NCBI GenBank assembly: GCA_034439715.1
Contig: JAWXAY010000035.1
Coordinates: 1 to 62,943 of the forward strand
Length of the DNA stretch: 62,943 nucleotides
From: Pseudomonadota bacterium
GTDB taxonomy: Bacteria; Bdellovibrionota; Bdellovibrionia; Bdellovibrionales; SG-bin7
Reading direction: 5' to 3'
A program made the translations under genes and the position numbers. Below the pieces are notes generated by a model. It was not told where the DNA came from and did not search any database. It worked only from the letters and a program-made list of their open reading frames with translations. Below, piece after piece: positions 23,176 to 46,743 of the stretch. How positions within the stretch are numbered: position 1 is the first letter of the stretch; every line of letters starts with the position of its first letter.

Positions 23176-23246
23176 ATTATGCTGTGGGTGAATGTGTCTC
23201 ATATTGAGACTTGAACAATTGAGGGCTCTCTGGAAAAATAGGGTTT

Positions 23247-37602: not shown

Positions 37603-38748
37603 ATGTTTCCCAGAAATTATAAGCATCCAAAGTCCCAAAGTTTCTTCCTTTTCGGCCCTCGGGGAACGGGTAAAACAACCTGGCTTAAAAATATGATGCC
37701 GACAGCCACACGAATAGATTTATTAGACGAGGCACTAGTTCAGTCCTATTTGCGTAATCCTCGCTTGTTTTATGAAGAATTGGCTCACTTGAGAGCAAAA
37801 AGTTAGGTCATTCTAGACGAAGTTCAAAGACTGCCTTCGCTATTAAATTATGTACATAAATTAATTGAAGAAAATAGGCTTCTTTTTGCGCTTACTGGCT
37901 CCAGTGCTAGAAAATTAAAAAAAGAAAATGCCAATATGTTAGCGGGGCGAGCCCTTTCGATGTCCTTTCACCCTCTCTCCGTAATAGAATTAGGCGGCCG
38001 GTTTGATCTCAAAGACTCCCTTCGCTTTGGACATTTACCAATGGTATTTAGCTCCGATGATCCAAAACAATATCTCAAATCATATGTGGGAACATACCTG
38101 AGAGAAGAGGTTCAGCAAGAGGCTCTGGTTAGAAATTTAGTGGGTTTTTCTCAATTCATGGAAGTCATGGCTTTGTCTCAAGGGCAACTCATAAACACCG
38201 AAAAAATCGGCGCAGAGGTTGGCGTTGATAGAAAAACAATTGAGAATTACCTAAAAATTTTAGAAGATCTTCTGCTTGCCAAAAGAGTTCCCGTGTTTCA
38301 AAAAAAGGCAAAAAGAAAAATGACCACAAAGCCTAAGTTTTTCTATTTTGACGTAGGAGTTTATCAAATATTGAGACCCCGCGGCCCTCTAGACCTTGAA
38401 AGTGAAATCCATGGTGTTGCCCTAGAGACTTTGATATTTCAGGAGTTGGTGGCCCTAATCGCACAAGAGGGACTTGATCTTGCCATTTCGTTTTATCGAA
38501 CAACCCAACATGTTGAGGTTGATTTTGTTGCTTATGGCGAAGATGGTTTTTTTGCTATCGAATCAAAAATGAGTCCACGAATTCGTCCAGAGGACTTAGT
38601 CGGCCTTAAACAATTTCACGAAGATTATCCTAAGGCAAAATGTTTTCTATTCTATCTAGGTACTGAACGAAGATTAATTGATAAATTTATACATGCGGTA
38701 CCTATAACCTCTGCACTAAAAAATTTACGAGACCTAATTAGCTCGTGA
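37603..38748 (+). pseudogene. AAA_14/DUF4143 ATPase interrupted by an in-frame TAG
   Basis: GPRGTGKT, then TAG at 37804-37806. The same frame continues VILDEVQ...LTGSSAR...LAGRA to EVDFV...AIESK. Confidence 0.88.
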
Positions 38749-38779
38749 GGCCATCATATAAAATTACCTAGCGAATATC

Positions 38780-38813
38780 CGGCGGTCGACAGCCTAGTGC
38801 TGGTGACGCATTA
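38780..38813 (+). repeat. Direct repeat copy 2
   Basis: CGGCGGTCGACAGCCTAGTGCTGGTGACGCATTA. Confidence 0.9.
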
Positions 38814-38820
38814 AAAGGTA

Positions 38821-39984
38821 TTATTCGCACAGGTCCGTTATTTTTCTTATCTGATTCCACGGCACGGCCACCACATCTTTATTTAGCTTAAGGACTCGAG
38901 GGGCAGAACATACGACAAAGGCTCCGTAAGGGCAATTATACTCCTTCATAAAAGTAACCAGATGTTTTGTATCGCTTTCGGTTAGACGATCTCCAAATTT
39001 TACTTCTATCGGAATAAATTTTCTCGAGGAGTTTAGTACCCAATCAACTTCAGGACCATCGGGATCACGCCAAAAGTGAAGGTGAGTACTAGATTTTTGT
39101 CGTACTGAACGAAGTAATTCAAGTCCAATCAGATTTTCAAAAAGCTCACCCAAGCGAGGACTCCCAAGTTGCGCACCTTCTCCCGCTGCCATTCTTCGAA
39201 CACCCAAATCAAAAAATAAATATTTACTTGATTTAGTCAATTTTTTTCGAGTCGCGGAGTTAGATATCGGATCCACCCGCTCGACGACTAAACAGTCTAC
39301 TAAAATTTGAAAGTAAGAGGCAATTGTGGTGTGCGCCACGCCTAGCGTCTGACTTATTGAATTAAAGGATACAATTTTTCCGGACTCTAATGCCGCAACT
39401 TCCAAAAACCTGTAAAATGCCGGTAAGTTTCTGACAATTGCCTCTGCGCGAACCTCCTCTTCAAGGTAAATATCTACGTAAGAACGTAAGTCAGCGTTTT
39501 TAATTTTCAAGTTTGAATTCAATGAAACCGCAGGAAGAGAACCATAAATGAGATGATCATCAAGTTTTTGTGAGTGCTCAAATTCACTAAAAGGATCCAT
39601 GTGCAAAGCGATGACTCGACCGGGCAACAGATTAATTTCTGACTGTCTCCTTAGTTTACGCGCGGAAGAACCCGTTAAAACAAATATGGCCTTGCGGTCG
39701 TCGATTAGCGTTTGGATGGGGTCAAGTATGTCCGGTACTTTTTGAATCTCGTCAATGACAACAATAGGCCTTTTCAAATTTAAGCCCTCTACCTCCTGAA
39801 TAATCTGATCGGGGTTTAGTTCGAACCGTCGTCTCTCTGTTGTTAAGGAGAGGTTTATGTAGAGATCAGACTTGACACTTTTTATCAGAGTAGTTTTACC
39901 GGTCTGGCGCGGACCCAACAAAAGTATACTCTTTTTATTCTTTAGTAATTCGTGGAACTCAGCCTCGATAGATCTCTTAACCAT
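38821..39984 (-). CDS. AAA_14/DUF4143 ATPase with C-terminal PD-(D/E)xK-like motif
   Basis: GPRQTGKT, IDEIQK, LTGSSAR, K.LFFD.G, EVDWV...PIEVK. Confidence 0.9.
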   Translation of the reverse strand: MVKRSIEAEFHELLKNKKSILLLGPRQTGKTTLIKSVKSDLYINLSLTTERRRFELNPDQIIQEVEGLNLKRPIVVIDEIQKVPDILDPIQTLIDDRKAIFVLTGSSARKLRRQSEINLLPGRVIALHMDPFSEFEHSQKLDDHLIYGSLPAVSLNSNLKIKNADLRSYVDIYLEEEVRAEAIVRNLPAFYRFLEVAALESGKIVSFNSISQTLGVAHTTIASYFQILVDCLVVERVDPISNSATRKKLTKSSKYLFFDLGVRRMAAGEGAQLGSPRLGELFENLIGLELLRSVRQKSSTHLHFWRDPDGPEVDWVLNSSRKFIPIEVKFGDRLTESDTKHLVTFMKEYNCPYGAFVVCSAPRVLKLNKDVVAVPWNQIRKITDLCE

Positions 39985-40024: not shown

Positions 40025-41575
40025 CTATTTTAGGTTAGCGCGAATTGCCTTCATACGGTTTGAGACTTTTTCCCAAATGGATGGGCCTGAAGCTGCAGTG
40101 ACACCTTCGGCTTTTAATCCTTGGGTCGCCATCATACGCATTTGTTCTTTTTTCTGTCCCGGTAAATACTTACTGAGATCAAATTTTGCCATATCCCTTT
40201 CGCCTCGTCCGCCGCCACCACCACTGCCTCCGCCAAAACTCCCGTACATGCCAACGTCACCGCCGCCTTTGCCACCCTTAATATAACCTTCGTTGACTTC
40301 TGTTTTGTAATCCTTCGCATCGCCACCTTTATCATCGGGGTTGATGCCACCGCCAGCCCCGCCTCCAGCAGGTCCACTCCCACCACCTTGTTGGACTCCG
40401 TCAGATTTAGTTGCGGCATCACCGTTACCACCATTAACTCCGCCAATTATGTCGCCATCACCGAGACCATTGAGAGCATCATTGCCTAGGTTGTCCCTTC
40501 CGCCACCTATGAGACCCGGATTTCCGGCAGTGGGGCCTGGTGCGCGATAATTACATATCGGATTCGTTCTCGCTTTTTTAGGGTCCGCACAGAGGCAGTC
40601 TCTACTTAATTGTTCCGATGGACTATTACAATCTGGTGCCCCACCACAACTCGGCTGAGATTTGTTTTCGGGTTTGGCACAATATTCTGCGATGCTAAAC
40701 CCTTCGGATTGTTTTGCGCAGTCATTTGCTACGGCCCACTGCACTGCATTCCCCGCGGCTTGTAAAACGGCCGGCAAGGTCTGGACATATAAATTCTGAC
40801 AATTGGACTCTCCAGCTTTAGCCCTTTTAGAAACTCTTAATTGAATTTCGTGTTTATTGTAGGCGGTCGAATGCTTTTCATAATGTCCCTGGCACACGCT
40901 CGCACTGCCATATTTGCTACAATTGACTCCAAAGGCACCCATGTTGTTCTTTGGCTGCTGCGATTTCTTTCTGATGCACTTCGTACATTCCTCATAAGTC
41001 TCATATTGTAACTTTGATTCGTTCAATTCCCTGTTCGCAATAGCCGTTGAAGACTCTGCTTTTTCACTGCAGGTACTATCACACTGTCTGGCAATCTCGC
41101 CGCAGGTAATCGCCAAGCCTGAATTTACCGCCACCCCAAGTTTCGAAAACGTTGCGGCCAGTTCACACCGATCTTTCGTAGACTTACCCGCGCCACCTGC
41201 TACGGCGCCGCCCAAGCCCTGAAACATATTCACCGCCATAAGAGTCACCGGATTCGTCAAAACATTACATGTCGACTTTGCAGATTTAACATTTAAAGCG
41301 CACTCGCCAAGCTCCATTTCAATTGCATTCTCCGCTCGCTCTCCTGTCATACTAGCTCTATACTTTGGTAGTAGCAGCTCGCCGCCGTCATCGCCCTGGC
41401 TATTTGTGCTACTGGTATTTTCGGGAGCCACCTCTTGAGAACCTTCAAAACCCTGTCCAAAATTATTAAAATTATTAGAACGGTCTTCCACCTGAGCCAT
41501 CACGCTATTTTCCTCAGTAATAGTCATCACAACTATGAAAATTAGCATTAAATTTCTTAAGCTTATTTTTCTCAT
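40025..41575 (-). CDS. Exported Cys/Gly-rich protein with a SIWEKVSNR C-terminal motif
   Basis: Signal-like N-terminus, many Cys, hydrophobic Gly/Ala helices, Gly-rich tail. Confidence 0.8.
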   Translation of the reverse strand: MRKISLRNLMLIFIVVMTITEENSVMAQVEDRSNNFNNFGQGFEGSQEVAPENTSSTNSQGDDGGELLLPKYRASMTGERAENAIEMELGECALNVKSAKSTCNVLTNPVTLMAVNMFQGLGGAVAGGAGKSTKDRCELAATFSKLGVAVNSGLAITCGEIARQCDSTCSEKAESSTAIANRELNESKLQYETYEECTKCIRKKSQQPKNNMGAFGVNCSKYGSASVCQGHYEKHSTAYNKHEIQLRVSKRAKAGESNCQNLYVQTLPAVLQAAGNAVQWAVANDCAKQSEGFSIAEYCAKPENKSQPSCGGAPDCNSPSEQLSRDCLCADPKKARTNPICNYRAPGPTAGNPGLIGGGRDNLGNDALNGLGDGDIIGGVNGGNGDAATKSDGVQQGGGSGPAGGGAGGGINPDDKGGDAKDYKTEVNEGYIKGGKGGGDVGMYGSFGGGSGGGGGRGERDMAKFDLSKYLPGQKKEQMRMMATQGLKAEGVTAASGPSIWEKVSNRMKAIRANLK

Positions 41576-41576
41576 T

Positions 41577-42566
41577 TTAGTTGCCCACCATAAAATAATT
41601 TACTTTTGATTTTTCCTGATACCTTCTCGACACCATTTTAAAAATATTATCTTGCGCCACACCAATCGGTTGACCCCGAAACAATTTTGCGGGTCCCGTA
41701 AACGAAGCAGCAGATCTGTCCTTGGATTTCATCTTTCCAAACAAAGAATTAAAATCAAATTTGCTACCACCGGCCGTACCGTCACCAGATCCTTGTCCGC
41801 CAGACGAGCCGCCGCCACTTGAATATGAAAGGCGCATATTTTTTTCGTTGGAACCGTATAGTGATGCAATTTTTGAGTTCACATCATTCATTTTGCCTGC
41901 AATCTCTTTCATCTCGGCCGGGCCTAAACCTGTAGCTGACGCGAAGGCGCCCGCATTCCCATTAGTTAAGTCCTCTAGGTTCGCCGTATTGCCATTCGGC
42001 AATGTCATATTCCCTTTTTCGTCGAGCTTAATTCCACGTTTTGCTATTTCAGCCAATGGTTTTTTTAACTCTTCCCGCACTTTTTCTGGTTCTATTACCG
42101 AGCCATCCGGCCGTGTGGGCCGAAATCTTTCGGGGTCAAGACTGGGTGAATAACCGGAGTCATCTTCTGATTTAGCCGCCCCTGCAACCGTGGATAGCTG
42201 ATACAATCCCTGAAGACCCGAAAGTCCCGCCATTCCCAAAAAGACAAAACCCAACATATCTTTCTTTGCGCCTGCAGATTTTTTTACAATACCGAGCTTC
42301 GCTTCAGATGTTGCCAGAGGAAAATTTTGGGCGTTAGCAGCGGTTATCGCTGCTTTTTCGTGCTCGACGCCTTTCTCTTTTAGAACAGTTCCCTCAGTCC
42401 ATTTCTCATCGGCTTCCATAAAAAGCATTGCCGCAGCTACCGCACTTGCTCCTGCACCCATGGCAGCTTGGCCGCCGGCGCTTGTGGACCCACTATTCGC
42501 CTGGCCAAAGCCTAAGCTCGCAGAAAATGAAATCGCAATTATCAAAGCAATGCACTTCTTAGCCAT
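41577..42566 (-). CDS. Exported Gly-rich protein with hydrophobic helices (paralog of the next gene)
   Basis: Signal peptide, two hydrophobic segments, TLPNG, C-terminal IGVAQDNIFKMVSRRY. Confidence 0.8.
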   Translation of the reverse strand: MAKKCIALIIAISFSASLGFGQANSGSTSAGGQAAMGAGASAVAAAMLFMEADEKWTEGTVLKEKGVEHEKAAITAANAQNFPLATSEAKLGIVKKSAGAKKDMLGFVFLGMAGLSGLQGLYQLSTVAGAAKSEDDSGYSPSLDPERFRPTRPDGSVIEPEKVREELKKPLAEIAKRGIKLDEKGNMTLPNGNTANLEDLTNGNAGAFASATGLGPAEMKEIAGKMNDVNSKIASLYGSNEKNMRLSYSSGGGSSGGQGSGDGTAGGSKFDFNSLFGKMKSKDRSAASFTGPAKLFRGQPIGVAQDNIFKMVSRRYQEKSKVNYFMVGN

Positions 42567-43529
42567 TTAAAATCCCCAATCGCCTTCAATAAAAAAACTT
42601 TCGGATTTTTTATCTTCATATTTTCTTCGCACCATCTGAAAAATGTCATCTTGGGCAATCCCTACCCTGTCTCCGCCAATATTTTTTGTAAGTCCCGCGG
42701 TTTTGGATGTAGCCACTTTCCTCATCGGCCGCGCGCCAAAATACCGGTCTAAATTTGTATCCGCTGAAGATTGTGGGGGAGAAGAAGACGCCCCGCCGCC
42801 ACCTGCAATCATTTCGAATTTTGAATCATTGGCCGCAGCTAACGCATTTTTTTTCTGTTTACTTAATTCGTCAGCTAGTATCTTTGCTTGATCTTCGTCG
42901 ACTCCCAATTTTTTTGCTATATCACCTACGCTACCGCCAACGCCGCCAAGAGCAACCTCCTGACCATTTGGTAATGTTAGACTGCCAGTATTGGAATCTA
43001 GTTTCGCGCCATATTGTTCTAAACTGTTCAAGCCTTTGTTAATTTGATTTTGAAAACTGTTTGGACCAATTTGTTTTCCATCAGGCGTAGTAATAATAAA
43101 CTTATCTGGAGCGCCGTCATCAAATCCAGACTGCGCGCCAGAAATACCAGCTCCAGATGCTACCTTTTTTTGAGAAAGACCCTGAGCGGTTGACAATACA
43201 CCCATGGCAACCATACCTAATCCCACCCAACACATTGGTTGCGTCCACGCACTTGGACAATTAGATACTGCTATTGCAGTACCCCCAATAATCAATCCTC
43301 CACCCATCACATAACTTACAATAGACGCCGAGTTGGCCTTTTTTTGCGAATTGTTCGAAGCCATATTTACGGGGGCCTGGTAAGTAGGTACATTGGTCGG
43401 CGGAGGGGTGGGGTTCGTCGACGGTGCTGGATTATTTTGCGCAAAAGAGCCATAACTTACTGTCGACAAAATCAGAATGAGTATACCAATCTTTCGATAC
43501 GTCTTTTCAAAAGAAAATAACTTAGTCAT
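42567..43529 (-). CDS. Exported Gly-rich protein with a hydrophobic hairpin
   Basis: Signal peptide (SFA), hairpin with C-x7-C loop, TLPNG, C-terminal VGIAQDDIFQMVRRKY. Confidence 0.8.
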   Translation of the reverse strand: MTKLFSFEKTYRKIGILILILSTVSYGSFAQNNPAPSTNPTPPPTNVPTYQAPVNMASNNSQKKANSASIVSYVMGGGLIIGGTAIAVSNCPSAWTQPMCWVGLGMVAMGVLSTAQGLSQKKVASGAGISGAQSGFDDGAPDKFIITTPDGKQIGPNSFQNQINKGLNSLEQYGAKLDSNTGSLTLPNGQEVALGGVGGSVGDIAKKLGVDEDQAKILADELSKQKKNALAAANDSKFEMIAGGGGASSSPPQSSADTNLDRYFGARPMRKVATSKTAGLTKNIGGDRVGIAQDDIFQMVRRKYEDKKSESFFIEGDWGF

Positions 43530-43565
43530 TGCTTACCTTTTTGTGTTTGATTACTTACTAAAGTC

Positions 43566-43593
43566 TTATCGGCTCATAATAGGATTTGCTTTA
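43566..43593 (-). promoter_or_regulatory. sigma28 promoter of the three-gene operon
   Basis: TAAAG-N15-GCCGATAA with a perfect -10. Confidence 0.75.
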
Positions 43594-43674
43594 ACAGATT
43601 ATTCACTTTTAGTGTCAATTCTATAGACACACTAAGTGCTTGTTTTAACATGTATTCCAAGCATTTTTTTATTG

Positions 43675-45711
43675 CTAATTACCGCCGCCCCACAATGCCG
43701 AAGGGGGAGGGTTTTTAATGTTTCCGTTCCCCGCGCCCACGCCGCCAAGAGAGTGCTCCTGCGATAACAAATAATCCCGTGAAACGATTTTAACGGAGTA
43801 CCCTGTTCTCCCCCCTATAATACAATCTCCGGGCGTCGGCGGCTCGTTGGAATTGGGCTCTGGAATCGAACTGCATTCTGCAAATTTGTTTGCTGGAAAG
43901 GAGTAGTCGGCCTCTTGCTCTTGCGCCCACCCGGTAAGTAATTGACTCGGTTTTTTGGTAAGAAAAAAATAATCAATAGTATTATTTATTGTAAAGGCGC
44001 TTCTGCTCGCCTCAAGCAATACATAGGCGTTGGCAATGGACGAAGTCCCGCCAATTGAACCATGGTCGTCGGGTGCTCCTGCGCCAATTCCCAAGCTCTG
44101 CGGGCCTCTGTTCACATAGTACCGATAAAACTGAGGTTCAACAGAGTAATAAATGGCGTCAAAAATATCGGGAGAAACTGCCGCAAGCTCGGCTTGACGA
44201 AGGACTCCCCCGTTCGGCACCGCTTCGGCAAATGGTAAATCATCTCCTTGCGGTGAACCAAGTGTCTTAAGAGTTTGATAGTGATTAGTATAGGGCCTCA
44301 AATTGACATCATCCTTGTTAAGCAATCCCCGGCCCATCGACATAGAGAGCGATGATTTTAAGCCAAACTTATCCCCGGGATATTTGGAGTAGTTAGGCAA
44401 AAAAATCGAATCTTTAGCTAAATCACCAGTGGGCTGATTACTTGGACTGCTGCGAGGCACAGCGAGCGGATCAACTTTAGCCGCGCCAGGATTTGACGTC
44501 GGCGACTCACGTTCCCAACTCACAGTATCCCATGGTCCAATTCTACCTCCAAATGGCTTTGCAAAAGCTACCGCTTTAAGTTCCACTGGGCTACCAAATG
44601 GCGCAAACGGCGGCTTCGAAAATGTTTTCGCACTCACTCCCACATAAGCCATGTACCAAGGGTTTTTTTCAAATCCCCGAGTGGAATGAAAAATGTTTCC
44701 GCGTGGCGGCTCGCCAATCATTGACCTTAATGCCCCGTCAGGGTCATTAGTTTCTACGTTTGGTGGCATTGTGCTAACGACTTCTATACTATTTGAACAA
44801 CCACTTCCACTGCCCGGTGTATGTAAAACATAACGAACAATTGGATCTATTTCTAAATCAGAGATCCAAAGTGGTCTGCCATTTTCAATTTTGGTAGCCA
44901 AAGAATTAAAGATAGACATTTCTTTTAGATTTCTTTTATTTCCCGAAGTTAGATTTTTCTCAAGCGTACTTGCAGTTCCACCTCGAACGGGTTGACCATC
45001 AAGGTCCATAAAACCATTTTCGTCATCCGACAGATTTCTAGCAAATTTTAAAAAAGCCATTTTTCTTCGCACGATGTCCTTTTTATACATATAGTTTATT
45101 ATTGCCGCAAATCGCCAATTGGCGAGCCCGCCCCTTTTACACGTTTCTGTGATTTGCCCTTTAATTTGTTCAATATAATTAGAAAGCTGGGCATTTAATG
45201 GATTAAGGGCAAAGATGACTGGGCTAGACGGAATTTGAGAAACTGTATTGTTTGCCGACTGACACAGAGACTCGTTGTCTCCGGCATCACTAAAATCACG
45301 CCAGCCTTTATGTGTGATGCAGACTGCGGGCTGATCAGCCATTAAAAAGGGAGTCCCCGAAATGACAGATGGAAATAGAGCTTCAGCCAGCGGACCACCG
45401 TAATCCAAACGTGCCGGATGCCCGTTGTACCCAAACCCACCAACAACCCTCAAACGATACGCCATTAATTTATATGTCTGGCGAATTTGATAATTCACGT
45501 GCGCCATCGCATTTAATACTTCGGCCTGTTTAGAGGCGGCATAATAAGCGGCGAGATCCACTGAGTTTTGTAAATTAATTTTATCGTGAACGAGCAGACC
45601 AATATTTATTATCATTGCGAAAAAAACAAAGAGTACCTGAAAAATAATCGCGATAAAAATTGCCATCTGCCCGCTGGCACATCTAATAATTCGCTTAAGC
45701 GTTTGCCACAT
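43675..45711 (-). CDS. Tad-domain (TadG-like) pseudopilin with a large C-terminal domain
   Basis: SG|QMAIFIAIIF...INIG.....K..LQNSVDLAAYYAA prepilin/Tad signature. Confidence 0.85.
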   Translation of the reverse strand: MWQTLKRIIRCASGQMAIFIAIIFQVLFVFFAMIINIGLLVHDKINLQNSVDLAAYYAASKQAEVLNAMAHVNYQIRQTYKLMAYRLRVVGGFGYNGHPARLDYGGPLAEALFPSVISGTPFLMADQPAVCITHKGWRDFSDAGDNESLCQSANNTVSQIPSSPVIFALNPLNAQLSNYIEQIKGQITETCKRGGLANWRFAAIINYMYKKDIVRRKMAFLKFARNLSDDENGFMDLDGQPVRGGTASTLEKNLTSGNKRNLKEMSIFNSLATKIENGRPLWISDLEIDPIVRYVLHTPGSGSGCSNSIEVVSTMPPNVETNDPDGALRSMIGEPPRGNIFHSTRGFEKNPWYMAYVGVSAKTFSKPPFAPFGSPVELKAVAFAKPFGGRIGPWDTVSWERESPTSNPGAAKVDPLAVPRSSPSNQPTGDLAKDSIFLPNYSKYPGDKFGLKSSLSMSMGRGLLNKDDVNLRPYTNHYQTLKTLGSPQGDDLPFAEAVPNGGVLRQAELAAVSPDIFDAIYYSVEPQFYRYYVNRGPQSLGIGAGAPDDHGSIGGTSSIANAYVLLEASRSAFTINNTIDYFFLTKKPSQLLTGWAQEQEADYSFPANKFAECSSIPEPNSNEPPTPGDCIIGGRTGYSVKIVSRDYLLSQEHSLGGVGAGNGNIKNPPPSALWGGGN

Positions 45712-46159: not shown

Positions 46160-46630
46160 CTAACTCACCAGTTTTCTTTTTTTGGGTTTGGTGTCCGCAA
46201 CATATTGTTCAACCGCCTTACGAATAAATACTTCCCAAAGATTCTTTGGAGGCGTCGTTATTACTTCGCCATTTGCATCAAGATAGTCACTTATTTTTCC
46301 ATAATCCACGTCAAAGTTTTCAATGCCAGCAAAATCCTTTCCTGCGAAGTAAAAATAGAATTCACCTTTTAACTTGCCCAAGTGGATAAAGCATTTAGAC
46401 TCATCCAAAGTTGTCCAGAATTTATTTGCACTTTCCTCGGAGTCAAAGCTTGTTTTATGGGTAAATTTGTACACACCCTCGACCATTGAGAACATAAAGA
46501 TGGTGTGCTGACAGCGATATTCTTCTGCATTTTCTCTAAAAAAGTCCCGGGCCCTATCTATAAACACTTCTCGATCAGCTGCTCGCAAGTGACAGACGTC
46601 TTCTAAAGATTCTGACTTATTCGTGTCCAT
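46160..46630 (-). CDS. Hypothetical protein
   Basis: 156-aa ORF with its own sigma28-type promoter. Confidence 0.75.
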   Translation of the reverse strand: MDTNKSESLEDVCHLRAADREVFIDRARDFFRENAEEYRCQHTIFMFSMVEGVYKFTHKTSFDSEESANKFWTTLDESKCFIHLGKLKGEFYFYFAGKDFAGIENFDVDYGKISDYLDANGEVITTPPKNLWEVFIRKAVEQYVADTKPKKRKLVS

Positions 46631-46636
46631 AGTCAG

Positions 46637-46664
46637 TTATCGGTAGCGGACAAAAGCCACTAAA
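46637..46664 (-). promoter_or_regulatory. sigma28-type promoter (near-leaderless)
   Basis: TTTAG-N15-ACCGATAA, 6 nt before the ATG at 46630. Confidence 0.6.
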
Positions 46665-46743
46665 CCTAGACTTAAGCTATAATCCCAATTTAGCGTCACC
46701 TAGCCTTTGACTTGAATCCCAGCCTTAAGAGAAACTGAGGCTT

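Follow-up and report, generated by a model that had tools for sequence, protein, structure and literature searches.

Two conserved protein families encoded beside a TadG-like pilin gene in a Bdellovibrio relative: predation-essential orthologs and candidate membrane-inserting cargo of the Tad pilus

Introduction

What do three exported-looking proteins encoded behind a TadG-like pilin gene contribute to a predatory bacterium? The genes were examined in a contig of 62,943 nt (JAWXAY010000035.1, assembly GCA_034439715.1; the whole stretch is hereafter the window), the source genome of which is a Bdellovibrio relative. An earlier note, made from the DNA letters alone, had read positions 40025 to 45711 as a candidate prey-contact system, in which a trio of translocator-like pore formers or effectors is delivered by the Tad machine. 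Through the orthologs, these genes have been shown to be conserved, predation-essential and expressed in attack phase, with products that fall soon after prey contact. Pore formation by these products, and their delivery by Tad, are what we infer.

A 2026 review treats the way in which Bdellovibrio opens the prey envelope, and the cause of prey death, as open questions, and a paper on MIDAS (metal-ion-dependent adhesion site) mutants reported that secreted proteins kill prey without invasion.

Locus organization and orthologs

Four minus-strand open reading frames (ORFs) make up the locus, as first described. A TadG-like minor pilin of 678 aa, ortholog of Bd0148, is encoded at 43675..45711. 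Protein A (42567..43529, 320 aa) belongs to the Bd0150 family and has a signal-like N-terminus and a helical hairpin with C91 and C100 at its loop. Protein B (41577..42566, 329 aa) is a duplicate copy of the same family without the loop cysteines. Protein C (40025..41575, 516 aa) belongs to the Bd0149 family. The intergenic gaps were 0 nt (A to B) and 1 nt (B to C) in the ORF list; the translational coupling claimed earlier is read from this spacing.

Members of the homolog clusters carried the name Bdellovibrio bacteriovorus. TadG aligned with P0004 at 35% over 730 columns (E 4e-107), and Q6MRD9 is Bd0148, a Tad-domain protein. Protein A aligned with P0013 (Q6MRD7, given as Bd0150 in the proteome table) at 26% over 341 columns (E 9e-9). 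Protein C matched P0033 directly at just E 0.02 and was assigned to Bd0149 by profile, synteny and promoter match: the bd0149 promoter reported earlier (PMC12622784, supplement) was matched by the stretch that separates tadG from the C-type gene in a related locus (L021). On the TadG, A and promoter matches together, the genes are assigned by sequence and synteny to the orthologous groups of bd0148, then two copies of bd0150, then bd0149.

The locus resembles bd0148-bd0150 of B. bacteriovorus in its orthologous genes, in an internal FliA promoter after tadG, and in its neighbours (nagZ, murU, amgK, an NtrC-like gene and uvrA). The gene order differs, being tadG-0150-0150-0149 in this genome and tadG-0149-0150 in B. 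bacteriovorus. The Bd0150 family is doubled here, one copy being without the loop cysteines, whereas B. bacteriovorus has one bd0150 in the locus. C-family matches numbered one in this genome and several in B. bacteriovorus-like genomes.

A and B are clear paralogs, as proposed (30% over 226 aa, E 7e-20). They likely represent a lineage-specific local duplication, since a second contig bears both copies (P0039 and P0041) and a tree of 24 chosen A/B rows placed both in a clade of their own family, weakly supported (81/76). The proposed trio is thus better described as a two-family pair with one local duplication.

A total of 61 genomes was searched, comprising the source genome and 60 of its family and order. 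TadG matches were found in 59, A/B profile matches in 59, matches to B in 49 and C profile matches in 48; a deeper C profile matched 33 of 37 genomes of the order. Homolog searches by word index had little depth (6 and 2 matches), and an exhaustive search returned 1271 A/B representatives, without taxonomy.

Requirement for predation and response to prey contact

Published lists of hypothetical genes essential for predation already include the locus, whose role is given there as a phenotype. Transposon insertion sequencing (Tn-seq) of an axenic strain under four prey conditions gave fitness values of 0.003-0.044 for Bd0148, 0.014-0.121 for Bd0149 and 0.003-0.051 for Bd0150, and 1.1-2.6 for the flanking genes (PMC6561027). 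The Bd0148 and Bd0150 phenotypes are probably their own, since no gene follows Bd0150 in the operon and bd0149 is served by a separate promoter. The screen was pooled and neighbouring cells left the mutants unrescued, which suggests that the product is bound to the cell rather than diffusible. In the same study pooled attachment was near normal (0.93 for Bd0149, 0.88 for Bd0150) and rounding was low (0.48 and 0.18, respectively).

A promoter of the FliA (sigma28) type, TAAAG-N16-CCGATA, lies at 43567..43593 on the minus strand. Of its 11 letters, 10 agree with the Bdellovibrio FliA consensus TTAAG-N16-CCGATA (PMC3627812), and the spacer is of equal length, so that the site is near-perfect rather than perfect as first described. 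The consensus drives 92 of 140 mapped attack-phase promoters (PMC3627812), so sigma28 here signifies the hunting phase, not flagella, and is not specific to this locus. In the ortholog, the bd0149 promoter occupies the corresponding position and is active during attack phase. A sigma-70 scan was uninformative (17 sites, 11.3 ± 3.7 expected).

In a time-course proteome of cell pellets (PMC12546842), Bd0149 and Bd0150 had changed by log2 -0.42 and -0.39 at 15 min (false discovery rate 8e-5 and 8e-3) and by -0.59 each at 30 min, with a rebound at 6-7 h. The Bd0149 paralog Bd0523 fell too, the three dropping by log2 0.39-0.42 at 15 min and 0.59-0.70 at 30 min. Among the 2305 rows listed at 15 min, Bd0149, Bd0150 and Bd0523 ranked 2271, 2259 and 2265 (lowest 2%). 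Bd0527 also fell early. The TadG protein Bd0148 was flat (0.00), the Tad core proteins ranged from -0.14 to +0.12, and the Flp pilin Bd0119 rose by about 2.

These orthologs support the prey-contact role proposed earlier: essentiality by Tn-seq, an attack-phase FliA promoter and an early fall in the proteome. In a preprint (bioRxiv 10.64898/2026.07.08.737194), CRISPR interference (CRISPRi) of a tadG called 'lone' blocked invasion; Tad was required for lasting attachment and invasion, and its depletion shortened attachment. The 'lone' tadG is, by our inference, bd0148.

A G256V change in Bd0149 accompanies biofilm-forming host-independent strains (PMC11323537). Placing it on the family sequence failed; residue 256 of the L021 protein is Asp, and the N-termini differ in length. 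No proposal of structure or mechanism for Bd0149 or Bd0150 was found in the openly accessible full-text literature that was searched.

Architecture of the two families

The mature A protein was modelled from a 149-row alignment (predicted local distance difference test, pLDDT, 73). The model comprises a helical hairpin of 37 + 36 residues, a small alpha/beta domain, a helix, a disordered Gly linker and a terminal beta-hairpin plus helix. The cysteines C91 and C100 have eight residues between them, so the C-x7-C loop first described is corrected; B is without loop cysteines. At least two cysteines fall in the hairpin loop window in 133 of 149 A/B members, and hairpin medians were 6% charged residues and 44% Gly, Ala and Ser. 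Such a conserved pair speaks against a hairpin that resides in the inner membrane with its loop in the cytoplasm.

The C model (42-row alignment, pLDDT 66) is a three-helix bundle, with helices of 74 and 68 residues, followed by a small Cys-rich domain, a long Gly-rich linker and a terminal motif. Eight cysteines are at least 90% conserved, and C is probably disulfide-rich. Signal-like N-termini, proposed for all three proteins, were present by hydropathy in 126 of 149 A/B and 35 of 42 C members. The hydrophobic helices proposed for all three were an overstatement and held best for A: the best 19-residue Kyte-Doolittle window past the N-terminus was 1.85, against 1.45 for B and a poor 1.22 for C.

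The related C-termini described earlier were recovered between the A/B and C families (hhalign 96%, E 2e-9, 56 columns). Whole-length homology was rejected, the alignment being confined to these last 56 columns. Beyond A, B and C the motif was found in none of the 8021 ORFs of the genome, so there is no evidence that it is a general secretion signal in this genome.

Known families gave little. Pfam had no family for A or B, a sub-cut-off Ndufs5 row alone for C (E 0.23), and no consistent known family across the members of either; NCBIfam gave nothing above cut-off for 7 proteins. HlyE/HBL/Xax-type families matched 0 of 149 A/B and 0 of 42 C members at E<=0.01 (Pfam). A PDB sequence search gave best E-values of 0.015 and 0.008, read as helical or Gly-linker noise, with no ClyA-type chain among the matches listed. 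The ESM Atlas gave no usable feature match for Bd0150 itself or for a homolog of Bd0149, and its structure rows had template modelling (TM) scores of at most 0.41. For SseC/YopD-type translocators, one stray T3SS_TC row was seen (1 of 149, E 0.003) and nothing further, the dedicated SseC search having had no positive control.

By fold, ClyA-family chains recurred among the top rows for both models, below significance and level with unrelated bundles. A aligned with the AhlB pore hairpin (Z 7.5, root-mean-square deviation (rmsd) 4.2, 89 aligned). C aligned with YaxB (Z 9.7, rmsd 6.4, 191 aligned), AhlC (9.3, 5.8, 180) and the ClyA pore (9.2, 6.3, 216), and also an IpaB fragment (Z 8.0).

The roles of ClyA-family components, and of the type III translocators SctE/SctB with the tip protein SctA, serve here as background. 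Like the ClyA-family toxins (YaxAB, XaxAB, AhlABC, SmhABC), A/B and C are encoded by adjacent genes and combine a hydrophobic-hairpin component with a long amphipathic bundle. They differ in having no Pfam or PDB sequence match, fold scores below significance, signal-like N-termini, conserved Cys pairs, a Gly linker and the shared C-terminal motif. Like SctE/SctB, they are a helical pair encoded together, with a hydrophobic hairpin and an amphipathic helix at the C-terminus, and a filament-tip gene adjoins them; they differ in their signal-like N-termini and missing SseC match, and the candidate partner filament is Tad. The genome (95.7% complete) has a single FHIPEP gene, probably the flagellar FlhA. 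By sequence A/B-C is a member of neither group; by architecture it may be likened to a ClyA/YaxAB pair or a type III translocon. The pore or translocator role proposed earlier fits the architecture and has no family or significant fold match behind it.

Relation to the Tad machine

TadG residues 14-60 matched the Pfam Tad family (PF13400, E 1e-7, above cut-off), and a prepilin-like hydrophobic helix was present at the N-terminus. The vWA (von Willebrand factor A)/MIDAS domain of canonical CpaL gave no row for TadG in the Pfam search. The ESM Atlas, queried with TadG, returned Tad clusters only. A core Tad machine was located elsewhere in the genome (C94:19762-27170), with pilin-like ORFs, a CpaB-like ORF, a secretin-like ORF, a 745-aa PF00437 ATPase and a TadB-like ORF; all names but that of the ATPase were given by inspection.

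For linkage, one tadG and one A/B place were counted per genome and extra C paralogs were left out. Among the 58 genomes with both, tadG lay within 10 kb of A/B in 33, farther away on the same contig in 8 and on another contig in 17. A/B lay within 1.5 kb of C in 39 of the 48 genomes that have the two families (in 8 they were on different contigs and in 1 far apart), and within the order the pair was a tight unit at 17 of 20 loci. In another order, loci L063 and L071 carry tadG, C and A/B in that order without the murU/amgK/nagZ block; a 416-aa ORF stands between tadG and C in L063. These two loci make the stronger case for a Tad link. Nine other A/B-like loci from other orders had no tadG in the stretch examined.

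Complex prediction of TadG with A gave a score of 0.34, against 0.01 for the best of 3 controls, which weakly supports contact. The runs scored 0.46, 0.34 and 0.05, with contact agreement of at least 23% and partner pLDDT of at least 54. In calibration 116 of 157 solved pairs passed the mark, as did 2 of 215 mismatched ones; the passes with scores no higher than 0.60 were just 18 of the 157 solved pairs and both mismatches. Taken with the linkage and the L063/L071 synteny, this makes the Tad link suggestive; within the order tadG was no closer than murU and amgK.

Tad tip minor pilins also drive contact killing in Myxococcus, where the Kil/Tad apparatus works alongside a type III secretion system lacking a needle (T3SS*; PMC12075869). 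Tip-delivered effectors are hypothesised in that report, and a Kil effector is not identified in its accessible part. T3SS* co-occurrence is limited to Cystobacterineae. In the present genome the genes of the candidate cargo adjoin tadG.

Candidate mechanism and alternatives

The explanation we tentatively favour is that A/B and C form a two-component cargo, likely made beforehand in the hunting phase and borne by the Tad tip with its Bd0148-type pilin, and that the two would insert together into the prey envelope to make the first breach. As in the orthologs, the FliA promoter would be active in attack phase and each gene required for predation in the pooled screen. The proteins would be exported by Sec and form disulfides in the predator periplasm, where a moderately hydrophobic hairpin could stay soluble. 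The shared C-terminal motif behind its flexible Gly linker may be a docking or tether signal for the Tad machine. A/B and C would then be held or carried at the Tad tip and discharged upon prey contact, consistent with the data. The A/B hairpin would insert and the long C bundle would scaffold it, in the manner of a ClyA/YaxAB-type pore or two type III translocators. The outcome would be either a passage for secreted enzymes or an anchor in the membrane by which the predator is committed to invasion.

A more specific version is doubtful: that Bdellovibrio has a translocon of its own, a Sec-exported, disulfide-stapled Bd0149 + Bd0150 pore, loaded on the Tad tip by way of the signal that their C-termini share and driven into the envelope of the prey. 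If true, this would be the functional counterpart, on a type IV filament, of the type III tip/translocator trio, and 'kiss of death' proteins would enter through the pore.

Several observations weigh against the favoured explanation. Hydrophobicity is modest: the Kyte-Doolittle family median is 1.42 for A/B, with just 35 of 149 members reaching 1.6, and 1.05 for C (6 of 42). The fold matches stay under the bar set for helical bundles, unrelated proteins score level with the ClyA rows (MSP-1, Z 10.1; dynein stalk, 10.0; Smc, 9.9), and Foldseek gave best E-values of 0.12 and 0.05 for the two models, none <=0.001. Within the order the neighbours of A/B are murU (16/20), amgK (15/20) and tadG (13/20), tadG lies over 10 kb off in 8 of the 41 genomes that have it on the same contig, and the A/B-C pair is under its own promoter. 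Outside the order tadG relatives are near universal (193 of 201 phylum genomes), whereas A/B matches, mostly weak, were found in 26 of 164. Transcription of Bd0149/Bd0150 is attack-phase and not contact-induced, and Bd0150::tn tested alone is attachment-defective, class 1, which fits an adhesin equally (PMC6561027). A bd0149 insertion may be polar on bd0150. The proteome drop of ~25-34% is below the 2-fold bar of its authors, flagellins and FlgM fall more (PMC12546842), and the cause could be shear, or turnover of proteins of the FliA regulon.

A non-lytic adhesin or anchor is one alternative. The pair would extend the Tad tip or coat the invasive pole and grip prey without forming a channel, though the hairpin may dip into the prey outer membrane. 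The singly tested Bd0150::tn mutant and the shortened attachment upon Tad depletion fit such a role; C resembles disulfide-rich surface bundles (MSP-1, trypanosome HpHb receptor) as much as toxins, and its family is expanded to as many as 5-8 matches per genome, as prey-recognition proteins often are. Set against this are pooled attachment of 0.88-0.93 with rounding of 0.18-0.48 and the conserved, charge-poor hairpin, and we regard the adhesin as somewhat unlikely.

Tad-independent delivery of a pair that still inserts into prey membranes, by type II secretion, vesicles or a type IVa pilus, is in our judgement quite unlikely. The vicinity of tadG would then be inherited gene order, as the equally tight linkage of murU/amgK, the pair's own promoter and the distant tadG genes would allow, and several further PF00437 ATPases are present in the genome. 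The loci of another order that keep tadG, C and A/B together without murU/amgK, and the weak TadG-A prediction, speak for Tad. Predator-resident periplasmic or membrane factors that assemble, gate or signal from Tad (like hit-locus proteins) and are turned over after contact would fit the null phenotype in common with tad genes, the 15-min fall of Bd0108 (-0.34) and the link of Bd0149 G256V to biofilm-forming host-independent strains, but are improbable given a flat Tad core while Bd0149/Bd0150 fall, a Cys-stapled loop hard to place in the cytoplasm, and the want of a clear A/B match in most phylum genomes that have tadG relatives.

Tad-tip delivery of a membrane-inserting pair thus remains our tentative preference. 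The analysis connects the 'lone' tadG (probably Bd0148) with two families that are conserved, essential and unannotated and that resemble membrane inserters in architecture. New here are these families, their pairing, the shared C-terminal motif, the early proteome drop and the upstream box described below. If the favoured explanation is true, the two families would be the first cargo named for a predatory Tad pilus, and a new pair of antibacterial proteins that breach membranes. Testing it would cost little, since mutants, CRISPRi strains and proteomes are at hand.

The palindromic box upstream of the promoter

The GTGTC-N9-GACAC site noted earlier is present at 43612..43630 (no strand assigned), 36 nt upstream of the FliA -35. 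As written, its frequency differs little from chance (3 in the genome against 0.8 expected per spacer). It is a degenerate 9/14 copy of TGTCTCA-N3-TGAGACA, a box kept in relatives and a putative regulator site. The box was present at 11/14 or better in 28 of 38 upstream regions (0.4 expected), about 7 of which had served to read the consensus. It was found in 13 of 14 further tadG-to-C loci (controls at most 9), often 29-30 nt before the FliA -35; in these counts kin are not independent and some genomes may repeat.

Across the source genome (G000) 10 sites scored 13/14, with 1 expected, and 36 scored 12/14, with 11 expected; they were mostly intergenic and before exported-looking proteins. The box accompanied 6 of 75 FliA sites (0.3 expected). 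No paper with this box was found in a search of the Bdellovibrio literature. A further site lies at window positions 23195-23211, and a 13/14 palindrome at C94:19103, just upstream of the main tad cluster.

Other features of the window and of related genomes

The Bd0149 family is expanded in some relatives, with three tandem paralogs before aspartate kinase (the first being Bd0523) and lone copies (L041:5094-9554, L042:5440-6747, L043, L047; also G037 and G175). In some genomes the C-family matches number up to 8-12. Four genes upstream of aspartate kinase, Bd0149 paralogs, had Tn-seq values of 0.26-1.8, the gene-to-tag mapping being uncertain. Larger exported-looking proteins of 600-850 aa carry the same C-terminal motif (L075:7481-9301, L076:5631-7424, L072:7178-9493, L073:6964-9522); two are from another family of the phylum, and they are possible distant members.

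In genomes of families f17/f29, weak A/B-like genes (L065-L070, L077) lie near flagellin and nuoD-like genes, in tandem in L065, with no tadG in the stretch examined. In a closed genome (G058, L022:12309-14572) tadG is split into ORFs of 310 and 444 aa, through sequencing error or a real break.

Between gene C and murU (window positions 37936-39984) are two AAA-type ORFs, which relatives such as L027 do not have. The 387-aa ORF is AAA_14 + DUF4143 (Pfam) and the 270-aa ORF is similar by inspection; the pair is likely an insertion. Upstream of tadG, a 156-aa ORF (46160-46665, minus strand) with no Pfam row above cut-off has its own FliA-like promoter, TTTAG-N16-CCGATA.

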